From Hymenobacter sp. B81 (GTDB lineage Bacteria > Bacteroidota > Bacteroidia > Cytophagales > Hymenobacteraceae), in assembly GCF_044628455.1 (NCBI RefSeq), contig NZ_JBIYZW010000001.1:370947-434946 (forward strand): a stretch of 64,000 nucleotides of DNA, written 5' to 3'. A model generated the notes under the pieces. It had not been told where the DNA came from and ran no database searches. It worked only from the letters and a program-made list of their open reading frames with translations. The translations under genes were made by a program, and so were the position numbers. This document shows positions 18,820-24,000 of this stretch, piece after piece. Within the stretch, counting starts at the first letter, position 1. The number at the start of each line of letters is the position of its first letter.

Positions 18820-21387
18820 ATGAAACAACTATTACTCTTGCTGCTGATCGGCTGCGGGCTCCGCAGCCACGCCGCCCAGCTCACCTTTCGCGTCGACATG
18901 CGCCAGCAGACGGTGAGTCCCGCCGGCGTGCACGTGGCGGGCAGCTTTCAGTCGGAGGCGGGCTTTCCGGCCGACTGGAACCCGGCCACCACGGCCCTGA
19001 CCGACCCCGACAACGACGGCATTTACGAAGTGACGGTGACCGTGCCGGCGGGCACGTACCTCTACAAGTTTGTGAACGGCAACGGCTGGCCCGGCGCCGA
19101 GCTGCCCCCGGCCGACTGCGGCGTGGCCGACGGCGGGGGCAACGTGAACCGGCAGGTAACCCTGGGCGCCACCGACCTGCGCCTGCCCGCCCCGGTGTTC
19201 AACGGCTGCACGCCCCAGGTGCGCTTTGCCGTGAACATGCGCGGGCAGACGGTTTCGCGCGCCGGGGTGCACGTGGTAGGCAGCTTCCAGACCCTGGCCG
19301 GCTACGGCAGCAACTGGAACCCCACGGCCATTCCGCTCAGCGACGCCAACGGCGACCAGATCTACGAAGTACAGATTTCGCTGCCCGCCGGGGCCGTGTT
19401 CCAGTACCGCTTCGTGAACGGCAACACCCTGGCCGGGGCCGAGCCGGTGCCCGCCGCCTGCGGCACCGACGACGGCACCGGCACCCGGCAGCGCGTGCTC
19501 GACGCCACGGCCGCGGTAAACGCGCCGCCGGCGGTGTGCTTTGCCACCTGCACGCCCTGCGGCCCCTCGCTCACCAACTACGCCACCCACTGGTGGAACG
19601 ACGCGGTGTTCTACGAGGTGTTCGTGCGCAGCTTCTACGACAGCAACGGCGACGGCCGCGGCGACTTCGCCGGGCTGATGCAGAAGCTCGACTACCTCAA
19701 CGACGGCAACCCCACCACCAGCACCGACCTGGGCGTGACGGCCCTGTGGCTGATGCCCATGATGGAGTCGCCCAGCTACCACGGCTACGACGTGACCAAC
19801 TACAAGGCCACCGAGCCCGACTACGGCTCGATGGCCGACTTCGAGGCCCTGCTGGCCGCCGCCCACGCCCGCGGCATCAAGGTGATTGTGGATTTGGTGC
19901 TCAACCACACCTCCAGCCAGCACCCCTGGTTTACGCAGTCCACCAGCTCGACCAGCCCCTTCCGCAACTGGTACGTGTGGTCGGCCACCAACCCCGGCTT
20001 CCAGGGACCCTGGGGCCAGACGGTGTGGCACCGCCGCAGCAGCAGCTACTACTACGGCATCTTCTTCGACGGCATGCCCGATTTGAACTGGAGCAACCCC
20101 AGCGTGAAGGCCGCCATGTGGGACGTGAGCCGCTTCTGGCTGCAGAAGGGCGTCGACGGCTACCGCCTCGATGCCATCAAGTACCTCGACGAGGACGGCA
20201 CCCGCCTGGAAGACACGCCCGAGACCTTTGCCCTGCTCGAAGAATTTCACGACTCGGTGAAGGCTGTGAACCCCAACGCCTTTACCGTGGGCGAGGCCTG
20301 GTCGAACACCGCCGCTGTGGTGCCCTACGTGCTCAACGATCGGCTCGACGTGTGCTTTGAGTTCGACCTGGCCGCGGCTATCATCAACGGCGTGCGCTCG
20401 GGCAACCCCACGGGCCTGCGCAACCAGCTCAACACGGTGGAGCAAAGCTACCCCAAGCTGCAGTACGCCACCTTCCTCACCAACCACGACCAGAACCGCG
20501 TGCTGGGCGAGTTGGGCGGCAACCTGGCCCAGATGAAGCAGGCTGCGGCGCTGTACCTGACCTTGCCCGGCGTGCCCTTCCTGTACTACGGCGAGGAAGT
20601 GGGCATGCTCGGCACCGGCCCCGACGAAGACAAGCGCAAGCCCATGCAGTGGACGGCGGGCAGCCAGGCCGGCTTTACCAGCGGCACGCCCTGGCGCGGC
20701 GTCAACGGCAACTACGCGCAGTTCAACGTGGCTACCATGCAGGCCGACCCGGCCTCGCTGCTCAACCACTACAAGCAGCTGATCCGCCTGCGCACTACCC
20801 ACGAGGCGCTGCGCAAGGGCTATTATCTGCCCGTGACGGCCTCGAACGCCGCGCTGCTGAGCTACGCCCGCGTGTACCAGCAGGAAGCCGTGGTGATGGT
20901 GTCGAACTTCGGGGCCGGCGCCGCGAGCAACCCGGCCCTCACGCTGAGCGTGTCGTCGCTGCCGGCGGGCGTGTACCAGGTTACGGAGCTGTACTCGGGC
21001 CAGGCTGCGGGCACCGTTACCCTCAACGGCCAGGGCGGATTCAGCGCCTGGAGCGTGGCGCTGCCGGCCCTGGGCGCCGATGAAACCTGGCTGCTGCGCC
21101 TGGCGCCCCAGGCCCCCACGGCCACCAGGCCCGGTCAGCCGCTGCTGGCCCTGAACCTGTACCCCAACCCGGCCGCCGACCAGGTGAGCGTGGAGCTGAC
21201 CCAGGAAACCGGCGCAGCCCGCAGCGAGCTGCGCGTGTACGACCTGCAGGGCCGGCTGGTGCAAACCACCCGCTTCGCCGGCCGCCGGCACCTGCTCGAC
21301 ACCAGCCGCTGGGCGCGCGGCACTTACTTCGTGCGCATTCAGTCGGGCGCGGCCGTGGCCACGCAGCGGCTGGTGGTTACGCGCTAG
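18820..21387 (+). CDS. GH13 alpha-amylase with two N-terminal starch-binding-like beta-sandwich repeats and a C-terminal T9SS (Por) sorting domain
   Basis: Two ~100-aa repeats (FRVDMRQQTVSPAGVHVAGSF...YKFVNGNGW / FAVNMRGQTVSRAGVHVVGSF...YRFVNGNT); GH13 core (VIVDLVLNHTS, GYRLDAIKY, FLTNHDQNR, LYYGEEVGM); C-terminal LNLYPNPAADQVSVEL...GTYFVRIQ typical T9SS CTD. ATG at 18820. Confidence 0.9.
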   Translation: MKQLLLLLLIGCGLRSHAAQLTFRVDMRQQTVSPAGVHVAGSFQSEAGFPADWNPATTALTDPDNDGIYEVTVTVPAGTYLYKFVNGNGWPGAELPPADCGVADGGGNVNRQVTLGATDLRLPAPVFNGCTPQVRFAVNMRGQTVSRAGVHVVGSFQTLAGYGSNWNPTAIPLSDANGDQIYEVQISLPAGAVFQYRFVNGNTLAGAEPVPAACGTDDGTGTRQRVLDATAAVNAPPAVCFATCTPCGPSLTNYATHWWNDAVFYEVFVRSFYDSNGDGRGDFAGLMQKLDYLNDGNPTTSTDLGVTALWLMPMMESPSYHGYDVTNYKATEPDYGSMADFEALLAAAHARGIKVIVDLVLNHTSSQHPWFTQSTSSTSPFRNWYVWSATNPGFQGPWGQTVWHRRSSSYYYGIFFDGMPDLNWSNPSVKAAMWDVSRFWLQKGVDGYRLDAIKYLDEDGTRLEDTPETFALLEEFHDSVKAVNPNAFTVGEAWSNTAAVVPYVLNDRLDVCFEFDLAAAIINGVRSGNPTGLRNQLNTVEQSYPKLQYATFLTNHDQNRVLGELGGNLAQMKQAAALYLTLPGVPFLYYGEEVGMLGTGPDEDKRKPMQWTAGSQAGFTSGTPWRGVNGNYAQFNVATMQADPASLLNHYKQLIRLRTTHEALRKGYYLPVTASNAALLSYARVYQQEAVVMVSNFGAGAASNPALTLSVSSLPAGVYQVTELYSGQAAGTVTLNGQGGFSAWSVALPALGADETWLLRLAPQAPTATRPGQPLLALNLYPNPAADQVSVELTQETGAARSELRVYDLQGRLVQTTRFAGRRHLLDTSRWARGTYFVRIQSGAAVATQRLVVTR

Positions 21388-21462
21388 CCGCGCCGCCATT
21401 TGCCACGCAAGGCGTCCGGCCGGGCTTGCTGCTCGGCCGGACGCTTTGCTTTGGCGGGCGGC

Positions 21463-21576
21463 CTACAGAAACTTTTCGGCCAGCCAGATCAGCAGCAGCG
21501 CGGCCAGCAAAGTCAGGATGACGTATTTGGATTTGGTGGGCGGCACCAGCCGCGGCGGGCGTTGAGGACGATGCAT
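21463..21576 (-). CDS. Possible 37-aa small membrane protein (MHRPQRPPRLVPPTKSKYVILTLLAALLLIWLAEKFL)
   Basis: ATG (21574-21576) at the tail of the long artefactual ORF 21463..22878; single C-terminal TM helix; no other support. Confidence 0.2.
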   Translation of the reverse strand: MHRPQRPPRLVPPTKSKYVILTLLAALLLIWLAEKFL

Positions 21577-21690
21577 AACCAAAGCGTGGGGAAAGGTGCC
21601 GGGTGAAGGCGACCCGACTTTTACGGCGGATGGGGGAGGCGGGATTAGGCGGTAAGGCAGGGGCCCGGTTCCGGGCAAGCTGGAGCAATA

Positions 21691-22542
21691 ATGGAAACTG
21701 CCGGCTTTGTGCGTCCTTTGCGGGCCCGTTTTCCACCCAGCTGCGCGCCTATGCCGCCCGATGTCCCCGCCCTGAGAACCGTCAACGTGACGCGCTACGT
21801 CACGCCGCTGCGCGAAGGCGGCTCCCTGCCGGCCCTGGTTGAGGCCGACGATGACTTCCTGTACGTGGTCAAGTTTCGCGGCGCGGGCCAGGGCGCCAAG
21901 GCCCTGATTGCCGAGCTGGTGGTGGGCGAGCTGGCCCGCGCCCTGGGGCTGCGCGTGCCCGAGCTGGTGTTCGTGCAGCTCGACGAAGCCTTCGGCCGCA
22001 CCGAGCCCGACGAGGAAATCCAGGACTTGCTGCGGGCCAGTGAGGGGCTGAACCTGGCTCTGCACTACCTCTCGGGCGCCAGCACCTACGACCCGCTGGT
22101 GAGCGTGGTAGACGCGCGCCTGGCCTCGCAGGTCGTCTGGCTCGACGCGCTGACCTTGAACGTGGACCGCACCGCCCGCAACACCAACATGCTGCTCTGG
22201 CACCGCGAGCTGTGGCTGATCGACCACGGCGCGGCGCTGTATGCGCACCACGCCGGGGCGGGCTGGGCCGCCCCCCGGCCGCGACCGTTTCCGCAGATCA
22301 AGGACCACGTGCTGCTGCCGCGCGCCACGGAGTTGGCGGCCGTCGACGCCGAGAGCCGGGCGCGCCTCACGCCCGAGCTGCTGCGCGCCATTGTGGCCCT
22401 GGTGCCCGATGCGTGGCTGACCGAGCCCGAAGTGCCCGCCGCTGAGCAGCGCCAGGCCTACGTGCAGTTCCTTACGGCCCGCCTGGCCGCATCCGAAACC
22501 TTTGTTCAGGAAGCCGACCATGCCCGACAAGCACTTGTTTGA
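21691..22542 (+). CDS. HipA-like / PI3-PI4-kinase-fold serine/threonine kinase-like protein
   Basis: Gly-rich loop KFRGAGQGAKA, catalytic-loop-like NVDRTARNTNMLL and DHG (LIDHGAAL) resembling the HipA C-terminal kinase core. Overlaps the downstream DUF3037 gene. Alternative ATG at 21751. Confidence 0.55.
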   Translation: METAGFVRPLRARFPPSCAPMPPDVPALRTVNVTRYVTPLREGGSLPALVEADDDFLYVVKFRGAGQGAKALIAELVVGELARALGLRVPELVFVQLDEAFGRTEPDEEIQDLLRASEGLNLALHYLSGASTYDPLVSVVDARLASQVVWLDALTLNVDRTARNTNMLLWHRELWLIDHGAALYAHHAGAGWAAPRPRPFPQIKDHVLLPRATELAAVDAESRARLTPELLRAIVALVPDAWLTEPEVPAAEQRQAYVQFLTARLAASETFVQEADHARQALV

Positions 22543-22906
22543 GTACGCCGTGCTGCGGGTAGTACCGCGCGTCGAGCGGGAGGAGTTCCTGAACGTGGGC
22601 GTGGTGCTGTACTGCCGCGACCAGGGCTTTCTGCAGTGCCGCTTCACCGTCGACGAAGCCCGGCTGCGGGCCTTCGGCGGCGCGGGCCTTGCTGCCGACG
22701 AGCTGCGGGCGCGGCTGCGGGCCTTCGAGCGCATCTGCGCGGGGCGGCGTGAGGGCGGCCCCATCGGGCAGCTGGGCTTAGCCGAGCGGTTTCGCTGGCT
22801 CACGGCCACGCGCAGCACCGTGGTGCAAACCTCGCCCGTGCACCCCGGCCTCTGCGCCGACGCCGAAACCACCCTCAACCGCCTCTACGCCCAACTGGTA
22901 GAGTAG
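22520..22906 (+). CDS. DUF3037-family protein
   Basis: MPDKHLFEYAVLRVVPRVEREEFLNVGVVLYCRDQGFLQCRFTVDEARLRAF... matches the DUF3037 pattern as I remember it (Y.V.R..P...REE..NVGVVL). ATG at 22520 overlaps the kinase gene by 23 nt. Confidence 0.55.
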   Translation: MPDKHLFEYAVLRVVPRVEREEFLNVGVVLYCRDQGFLQCRFTVDEARLRAFGGAGLAADELRARLRAFERICAGRREGGPIGQLGLAERFRWLTATRSTVVQTSPVHPGLCADAETTLNRLYAQLVE

Positions 22907-23025
22907 CGCCCCAGGCCGGCAACTCCTGTCGCGCTTCGAAGCCTGCGAAGGCAGGTGCTCGTCGGTGGCCCGGGTTGCCGACCTTTGCCAGCCGGCCCGG
23001 CGCATACCGCGGGCCGCCGACCGAT

Positions 23026-24000
23026 ATGAGCTTGTTAGAAGTGGTGGGCATCAGCCTGCAGGAGCGCGGCAGCCTGGCTTTGCACGAGGTGTCGTTTACC
23101 CAGCAGGCAGGCCGCCGGCTGGCCTTGGCCGGCGAAACCGGGGCCGGCAAAAGCAGCCTGCTCCAAACCGTTGCCGGGCTGATTCAACCCACCGCCGGCG
23201 AGGTGCGCTTCGATGGCCGCAAGGTGATTGGGCCGGCCGACAAGCTGGTGCCGGGCCACGCGGGCATTGCCTACCTGTCGCAGCAGTTCGAGCTGCCCAA
23301 GTTTTTGCGCGTCGAGCAGGTGCTGCGCTACGCCAACCGCCGGTCGGCCGCCGAAGCCGCCGCGCTGTTTCGTCTCTGCCGCATCGACCACCTGCTCACG
23401 CGCCCCACCAACGAGCTGTCGGGCGGCGAGCGGCAGCGCATTGCCCTGGCCCGGCTGCTGCTGGGCGCGCCCCGGCTGCTGCTGCTCGACGAGCCGTTCT
23501 CCAACCTGGACATGACGCACAAGGCGGAGCTGAAAGCCGTGCTCGACGACCTGGGCCAGCAGCTGGGCATCACCTGCCTGCTGGTCTCGCACGACCCGCT
23601 CGACACGCTGTCCTGGGCCGACGAAATCCTGGTGCTGCAGCGCGGGCGCCTGGTGCAGCAGGGGCCGCCCGAGCAGGTGTACCGCCAGCCGGTGAGTGCC
23701 TACGTCGCGGCGCTCTTCGGCGGCTACAGCCTGTTGACGGGAGCCGCGGCCCGCGCCCTGGCCGGCCCGGCACCGGGCAAGGACAGTCAGCTGCTCGTGC
23801 GCCCCGAGCAGCTGGTGCTGAACCCGGCCGCGGGTGGCTTGCCCGGCCAGGTGACGCGGGTGCGCTTTTTCGGGCCCTACTCGGAGGTGGAAGTAGCCCT
23901 GCGCGCAACGAAGGTGGTGGCGCGCCACGCGGCGCCCGGGCTGGTGGCCGGCGACGCCGTGCGTCTGGGGCTGGCCCCCGGCAGCGGCTGGTGGGTATAA
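23026..24000 (+). CDS. ABC transporter ATP-binding protein with C-terminal TOBE-like domain (CysA/ModC/PotA-like), no adjacent permease
   Basis: Walker A GETGAGKSS, signature LSGGERQRIALARLL, Walker B LLLLDEPFSNLD, H-loop SHD; C-terminal OB-like extension. ATG at 23026; the track ORF starts at an upstream TTG. Confidence 0.85.
   Translation: MSLLEVVGISLQERGSLALHEVSFTQQAGRRLALAGETGAGKSSLLQTVAGLIQPTAGEVRFDGRKVIGPADKLVPGHAGIAYLSQQFELPKFLRVEQVLRYANRRSAAEAAALFRLCRIDHLLTRPTNELSGGERQRIALARLLLGAPRLLLLDEPFSNLDMTHKAELKAVLDDLGQQLGITCLLVSHDPLDTLSWADEILVLQRGRLVQQGPPEQVYRQPVSAYVAALFGGYSLLTGAAARALAGPAPGKDSQLLVRPEQLVLNPAAGGLPGQVTRVRFFGPYSEVEVALRATKVVARHAAPGLVAGDAVRLGLAPGSGWWV

Follow-up and report, generated by a model that had tools for sequence, protein, structure and literature searches.

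An overlapping HipA_2 kinase/DUF3037 gene pair in Hymenobacter sp. B81: a short, vertically inherited relative of HipAD

We analysed a 64,000-nucleotide (nt) stretch of the genome of Hymenobacter sp. B81 (contig NZ_JBIYZW010000001.1, positions 370,947 to 434,946; hereafter the window) and characterized in it two overlapping genes that encode a HipA-like kinase of the HipA_2 family and a stand-alone DUF3037 protein, each with a 100% identical database entry from B81 (P0121 and P0001, respectively). The two proteins are homologous to members of known two-gene systems, the kinase retains the catalytic residues K41, E55, D139, N144 and D158, and the adjacency of the genes, their order and their overlap are obligately conserved. 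The pairing itself has already been described, under the names PDC-M66, HipAD and DS-6; the window copy is a distant, domain-minimal and vertically inherited form of it. On balance, we lean towards reading the pair as a chromosomal, co-translated switch of the toxin-antitoxin type, in which the kinase would be held inactive by its DUF3037 partner.

The features of the module are as follows, with kinase residues numbered, here and below, on the 263-amino-acid (aa) protein:

21751-22542, plus strand: HipA_2-family Ser/Thr-kinase-like gene, 263 aa from the conserved start; homologous to PF20613, PDC-M66A and DS-6A.
21811-21825, plus strand: codons of R21-E-G-G-S25, predicted glycine-rich loop between strands 1 and 2; invariant in alignment A1, and a loop between strands E10-19 and E28-32 in the AlphaFold2 (AF2) model.
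21871-21873, plus strand: codon of K41, predicted ATP-binding lysine of strand 3 (YVVK); invariant in A1 and aligned to YVLK of DS-6A.
22159-22188, plus strand: catalytic-loop codons N137-V-D139-R-T-A-R-N144-T-N146; invariant in A1 and 90-100% conserved over 81 Bacteroidota loci.
22222-22230, plus strand: codons of D158-H-G, predicted Mg2+-binding Asp (DFG-equivalent); invariant in A1 and aligned to LIDHN of DS-6A.
22520-22906, plus strand: stand-alone DUF3037 gene, 128 aa, matching PF11236 over its full length; predicted kinase-neutralizing partner, HipD-like, with the N-terminal domain only.
22520-22542, plus strand: 23-nt overlap between the kinase stop and the DUF3037 start, in two frames, read from the sequence.

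Both open reading frames (ORFs) and their 23-nt overlap exist as given in a preliminary description of this DNA. The kinase ORF spans 21691-22542 on the plus strand and encodes 283 aa when read from its first ATG, the length that the description had assigned to the protein; however, both the NCBI gene model (P0121, 'HipA family kinase', 263 aa, 100% identical) and the homologues begin at the second Met, so that the gene itself most likely occupies 21751-22542. The DUF3037 gene encodes 128 aa from its ATG, and an alternative TTG at 22502 would extend the product to 134 aa. GC content at third codon positions (GC3) is of the coding type in both frames (0.88 for the kinase ORF and 0.89 for the DUF3037 ORF), compared to 0.79 for a longer antisense ORF at 21463-22878.

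The kinase ORF matches the Pfam family HipA_2 (PF20613; E 1.3e-16, 61 bits against a cut-off of 27) and the PADLOC profile PDC-M66A (E 3.3e-22). An alignment of 20 kinase relatives (A1) contains invariant K41 (in YVVK), E55, N137-V-D139-R-T-A-R-N144-T-N146 and I157-D158-H159-G160, and a comparison over the 81 Bacteroidota loci shows no variation at 19% of positions and conservation of 90% or more at 45%, with all catalytic motifs included. The catalytic loop lines up by eye with D309-G-H-A-K-N314 of Escherichia coli HipA (D309-x-x-x-K-N314), as I-D158-H-G does with HipA D332, and BLASTP aligns D139 on D139 of DS-6A. The N.DR..N and DHG motifs noted in the preliminary description are these two segments. 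It had also proposed a Gly-rich loop, which is present as R-E-G-G-S25; the GAGQG run that was probably meant sits after the strand-3 lysine K41 in both the AF2 model and A1. Because R-E-G-G-S25 joins strands 1 and 2 in the AF2 model, it probably serves to bind phosphate; the corresponding residues are 'NEGST' in DS-6A and 'LGGST' in the kinase of the Retron-Sda1 operon (described below). S25 could be an autophosphorylation site, as its analogy to HipA S150 suggests.

The AF2 model of the kinase is of moderate quality (predicted local distance difference test score (pLDDT) 73, predicted template modelling score (pTM) 0.80). Its best PDB matches are Fam20 kinases, Helicobacter pylori CtkA and Shewanella HipA (E ~3e-4 to 1e-2, template modelling score ~0.5), which fit a HipA/PI3/4-kinase-like fold without being strong evidence for it. 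A search of PDB chain sequences with both family profiles returned no relatives, and hhalign of A1 against E. coli HipA indicated no relation (probability 0.7%). Many kinase homologues in RefSeq and UniRef are named 'aminotransferase class I and II', a label that no Pfam or other evidence backs and that appears to be a propagated mis-annotation; these entries can now be corrected.

The DUF3037 protein matches PF11236 from end to end (E 1.4e-47, 161 bits, profile positions 1-118 of 118), the assignment that had been proposed for it, and the PADLOC profile PDC-M66B only over positions 3-129 of 281 (E 3.5e-13). The C-terminal domain of about 150 aa that characterizes validated members (275 aa in DS-6B, 281 positions in PDC-M66B) is thus missing from the 128-aa protein. 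The DUF3037 reading frame stops at 22906 and is followed by an ABC ATPase gene. This short architecture is the usual one among close relatives, with 146 of the 150 nearest cluster representatives (from 1,809 clusters at 50% identity) no longer than 193 aa. Positions conserved among diverse members include Y9, R13, P16, R20, E22, N25, G27, R90, F91, W93, L94, S99, Q103, H108 and G110; the conserved Ser/Thr positions include S99 (at least 90% in alignment A3) and an RST..QTS motif. The AF2 model has a mean pLDDT of 89, and Foldseek found nothing in the PDB with E ≤0.001. The only PDB matches obtained with alignment A3, to pyridoxamine-phosphate oxidases, were rejected as spurious, since they stem from one fused sequence, P0389. 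That 337-aa protein joins DUF3037 to a complete pyridoxamine-5'-phosphate oxidase (PNPOx_N + PNP_phzG_C) and is either a real fusion or a gene-call run-on.

The conservation of the pair was assessed in a scan of one genome per GTDB species, using query alignment A4 (narrower than A3), which recovered at least 598 relatives. By record title, 79 of the 80 best loci among these belong to Bacteroidota (Cytophagales, Chitinophagales, Sphingobacteriales, Flavobacterium and Parabacteroides). The exception (L014), labelled as a Janthinobacterium lividum metagenome-assembled genome, carries a Bacteroidota-type pair that is 67-69% identical to the window copy and nests with Sphingobacteriaceae; this probably reflects misbinning of the contig and not a transfer.

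In 81/81 testable loci (those with upstream DNA present), the gene immediately upstream, on the same strand, encodes a full-length kinase, and the same pair was recovered when the search began from the kinase. Such pairing is far beyond chance, and it bears out the co-occurrence of the two families that the preliminary description had proposed to check. The genes overlap in every one of these loci, by 23 nt in 64, 14 nt in eight, 11 nt in eight and 20 nt in one, with a constant frame relation; Pontibacter, Spirosoma and Hymenobacter aquaticus have the same two genes and the same 23-nt overlap. Pairwise divergences of the kinase and the DUF3037 protein are correlated (r = 0.64). A conserved third gene (a HipB-like regulator, sensor or target) was sought in 83 loci and none was found, the next most frequent ORF cluster occurring in at most 9 of the 83.

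Pairing also occurs outside Bacteroidota, in Streptomyces, with a 4-nt overlap. On the linear plasmid of Streptomyces sp. 2P-4 (L084, 3225-4366) the short-form pair lies inside a polyketide-type cluster, flanked on one side by polyketide synthase and phosphopantetheinyl transferase genes and on the other by ccrA, a TetR regulator gene and the elfamycin-type efflux gene facT. On plasmid p1 of Leptolyngbya boryana (L085, 3757-4429) the DUF3037 gene is intact and the kinase is reduced to an 88-aa remnant ORF, with the 23-nt overlap kept. This looks like a decayed kinase whose partner was retained, and we count it in favour of a toxin/antitoxin asymmetry; IS110 and IS630 transposase genes lie nearby. 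In H. aquaticus (L086, 1-2754) the pair divergently adjoins a Pnkp/Hen1 RNA-repair operon, a single case that may be coincidence.

The preliminary description knew of no defined function for this pairing. That statement is out of date, because PDC-M66 is part of PADLOC, HipAD has been named and the function of homologues has been published (PMC12548924, PMC13092281). PADLOC's PDC systems are 145 candidates predicted by 'guilt-by-embedding' (Payne et al. 2024; 10.1101/2024.01.29.577857), among which PDC-M66 is a two-gene candidate whose two profiles are both matched by the window proteins. The window pair differs from it in the truncated match of the second protein and in its setting, neither within nor beside a known defence system.

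DS-6, identified by DefensePredictor (Science 2026), was renamed HipAD; its D139A kinase mutant loses defence, and AlphaFold3 predicts an interaction between its A and B proteins (interface pTM 0.76-0.79; PMC13092281). HipAD was also found independently in E. coli prophages by Brenes and Laub (2025), as cited in PMC13092281, and one Escherichia phage record annotates the genes as 'HipD' and 'HipA'. Compared with the DS-6 sequences (Table S8 of PMC13092281) by BLASTP, the window kinase is 28% identical to DS-6A over 234 aa (E 2e-14), and the DUF3037 protein aligns with the N-terminal half of DS-6B (residues 7-125) at 26% identity over 124 aa (E 2e-12). The homology spans the whole kinase and the whole DUF3037 domain, and the two systems share a HipA_2 kinase gene followed by an overlapping DUF3037 gene on the same strand, together with the equivalent of the catalytic Asp D139. 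They differ in that DS-6B is a 275-aa protein whose additional C-terminal domain weakly resembles DUF1829 and has a predicted contact with DNA, whereas the window protein has 128 aa; in the length of the overlap, which is 4 nt in DS-6 and 23 nt in the window; and in the presence of DS-6 relatives, unlike members of the window clade, on phages, prophages and transmissible plasmids.

The second experimentally studied relative, the HipA-like/DUF3037 pair of the Retron-Sda1 operon, belongs to another member of Bacteroidota, Sphingobacterium daejeonense. With the retron parts left out, its two genes still protect E. coli from phage Bas51; deletion of the kinase gene abolishes defence, and deletion of the DUF3037 gene is toxic (PMC12548924). 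The gene order is that of the window pair, and the roles of kinase as toxin and DUF3037 protein as neutralizer have been shown for Sda1 (PMC12548924). The Sda1 operon has additional components that the window pair lacks, namely an upstream helix-turn-helix (HTH) gene, the retron reverse transcriptase and noncoding RNA, and a C-terminal region of its DUF3037 protein that is winged-HTH-like and similar to retron DNA-binding proteins.

These precedents underlie the mechanism that we favour. By extension from what was found for homologues, the kinase would use ATP to phosphorylate Ser/Thr residues and would arrest growth, the DUF3037 protein would bind it and keep it inactive, and the gene overlap may couple synthesis of the inhibitor to that of the kinase through translational coupling. 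Phage infection or another stress would lead to loss or displacement of the inhibitor, and the freed kinase would then phosphorylate an essential cellular target, possibly a translation factor by analogy with HipA and HipT, so that growth stops. The DUF3037 domain is probably the kinase-neutralizing part, because the short and long forms have nothing else of the partner in common. Since the C-terminal domain is missing, DNA-linked regulation or sensing through that domain is unavailable to the window module.

Several observations weigh against this reading. Toxicity and neutralization are extrapolated from relatives of only 26-28% identity, the catalytic segment of the kinase (residues 138-165) is modelled by AF2 with pLDDT <50, and the module includes neither an autoregulator of the HTH or HipB type nor a partner with a DNA-binding domain. 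The remaining points concern inheritance and genomic context. The short pair is spread across the phylum Bacteroidota, and in a neighbour-joining tree of both proteins most multiply sampled genera are monophyletic (Hymenobacter, Spirosoma, Fibrella, Runella, Flavobacterium, Arcicella, Imperialibacter and Flavipsychrobacter) and members of a family mostly group together; Pedobacter, Chitinophaga, Dyadobacter and Mucilaginibacter each fall into more than one clade, and the deeper branches are unresolved, with some mixing. Within genera the gene order around the pair is kept, and housekeeping genes are among the neighbours: all eight Flavobacterium species share their flanks, including nnr, gcvT and a tail-specific protease gene, and shared flanks were also seen in Hymenobacter (L004/L005/L007 and L011/L021), a Fibrella pair and a Mucilaginibacter trio, with synteny disappearing at greater evolutionary distance. 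The short form had no match in 50,697 phage records or in 2.9 million IMG/VR contigs and occurred on only 8 of 72,556 plasmid records, all of them large replicons and none conjugative; the same searches with the long form yielded three phage records, 21 plasmids (14 mobilizable or conjugative) and 47 IMG/VR loci. Finally, PADLOC returned only partial, generic matches (segments of an ABC ATPase, a methyltransferase and a glycosidase) for 10 neighbouring window proteins.

Relative to the window copy, the kinase is 76-83% identical within Hymenobacter and 59-75% in the rest of the phylum, and the DUF3037 protein 69-81% and 47-74%, respectively. The short module in Bacteroidota is a vertically inherited core-chromosome pair that is not carried by mobile elements, and in its evolutionary behaviour this clade departs from a typical mobile conflict system. 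The toxin-antitoxin, persistence or conflict role suggested in the preliminary description thus agrees with the experiments on homologues (PMC12548924, PMC13092281) and sits uneasily with a lineage that is vertical, syntenic, absent from phages and devoid of defence neighbours.

The strongest rival explanation, which we regard as quite possible, is a housekeeping signalling pair, in which a non-toxic regulatory kinase would work with DUF3037 as a regulatory subunit, adaptor or substrate to control some process of normal physiology, the mobile HipAD being derived from it or parallel to it. The conservation of the kinase at 59-83% identity across Cytophagales, Chitinophagales, Sphingobacteriales, Flavobacterium and Parabacteroides, the monophyletic genera, the within-genus synteny beside nnr, gcvT and the tail-specific protease gene in Flavobacterium, the presence of only the long form in phage and viral collections and the lack of defence neighbours all point this way, and the conserved DUF3037 Ser/Thr positions (S99, RST..QTS) could be phospho-acceptors. 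However, the sole functional data for the family are toxin/antitoxin behaviour and phage defence (PMC12548924, PMC13092281), and the strict overlap and the two-gene cassette, beside which no pathway genes are conserved, are consistent with a self-contained toxin-antitoxin module. Conservation across a genus is also known for some toxin-antitoxin systems of chromosomes, for example Legionella HipBST as presented in 10.1101/2022.11.26.518041. The dN/dS ratio within Hymenobacter (0.16-0.37) is unremarkable and carries little weight, because a GC3 near 0.9 makes the synonymous rate unreliable. The evolutionary data favour the housekeeping explanation, and the sole experimental data for the family disfavour it.

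A second alternative, compatible with the toxin-antitoxin-type switch and in our view unlikely, is a split HipA, in which the DUF3037 gene, lying downstream of the core kinase gene, would supply a HipS-like version of HipA N-subdomain-1 that inhibits the kinase by occupying the docking site of that subdomain. The window kinase is indeed a bare core of 263 aa with its Gly-rich loop near the N terminus, like the short HipG/I/J/M kinases. The hipJS, hipIN and HipBST systems likewise pair a small antitoxin protein with a short Hip kinase core from which N-subdomain-1 is absent; in hipJS and hipIN the antitoxin is encoded after the kinase, and in hipJS its gene is HipS-like (Gerdes et al. 2021, PMC8262856). 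Those systems, however, use kinases of HipA_C-type families with HipS-like partners, whereas DUF3037 has no detectable sequence relation to HipS or the HipA N-terminal region: hhalign of the DUF3037 profile gave probabilities of 0.4% against HipA N-subdomain-1 and 0.1% against full-length HipA, Pfam gave no match of the protein to Couple_hipA or HipA_N, and the Foldseek search of the PDB was empty, as noted above. In the searched parts of the supplementary files of PMC8262856, none of the Bacteroidota names sought occurs.

A canonical HipBA-type persistence module, as in E. coli K-12, is very improbable. The window kinase shares with HipA the D-x-x-x-(K/R)-N loop, the downstream Asp and the kinase fold, but it lacks the N-terminal subdomain and belongs to another Pfam family: the HipA-like assignment made earlier holds through HipA_2, and the HipA_C profile that had been proposed for checking it gave no match, as was the case for HipA_N and Couple_hipA in Pfam. 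No NCBIfam model matches either protein. There is no HTH or HipB gene and no conserved third gene in the 83 loci, and the partner is a DUF3037 protein encoded downstream rather than upstream; domain content, the missing HipB and gene order together contradict this reading. Chance adjacency or mis-called ORFs, a concern in a high-GC genome that yields many spurious ORFs, is refuted by the strong Pfam matches of both proteins, their GC3 values and the retention of the pair in 81/81 loci.

The surroundings of the module correspond to those given in the preliminary description. Upstream lies an alpha-amylase gene with a Por_Secre_tail domain and a stop at 21387, and downstream an ABC ATPase gene with a TOBE_2 domain at 22975-24000 on the plus strand (Pfam). 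No obvious permease gene adjoins the latter, and the following downstream ORFs encode only 89-117 aa. This ABC ATPase recurs in only seven loci, with a similar one near the pair in six loci besides that of the window, none of them Hymenobacter; because this recurrence is rare and absent from the other Hymenobacter loci, we do not consider the gene part of the module, and the recurrence is probably paralogue noise.

The 363 nt upstream of the kinase gene contain a single ORF, of 37 aa and on the opposite strand (MHRPQRPPRLVPPTKSKYVILTLLAALLLIWLAEKFL, 21463-21576, minus strand). It has one predicted membrane helix, is oriented away from the kinase gene and makes up the tail end of the long antisense ORF; we list it as a candidate gene. 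One further feature lies between the amylase stop at 21387 and the end of this small ORF:

21407-21449, no strand assigned: GC-rich inverted repeat with 19-nt arms, 89% complementary, and a 5-nt loop.

This repeat is probably the upstream boundary of the module and may possibly act as a bidirectional terminator. Scans of the locus with Rfam, sigma-70 promoter and intrinsic-terminator models gave no match, the promoter scan being one that does not cover Bacteroidota promoters.

Phage defence by HipA_2/DUF3037 pairs was shown only in 2025-2026. The Bacteroidota form described here consists of a bare kinase core and the DUF3037 domain alone, and it marks the smallest unit in which the toxic activity and the control of that activity must both reside. 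We suggest, more speculatively than in the case of the rival explanation of a housekeeping pair, that the short pair may be a core-chromosome kinase switch rather than mobile immunity, with stand-alone DUF3037 as the whole regulatory partner. The HipAD systems of Proteobacteria phages and plasmids would then be derivatives that added a C-terminal DNA-binding or sensor domain, or, in the reverse direction, an ancient toxin-antitoxin system would have been domesticated into physiology. If such a core switch exists, in whichever direction it arose, it would provide a traceable link between immune and housekeeping kinase modules, and DUF3037 would represent either a new class of fold among kinase inhibitors or a HipS-like inhibitor that has diverged very far. 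The vertical core-genome form and the mobile long form together offer a natural system in which to ask whether these modules originated in physiology first or in immunity first.

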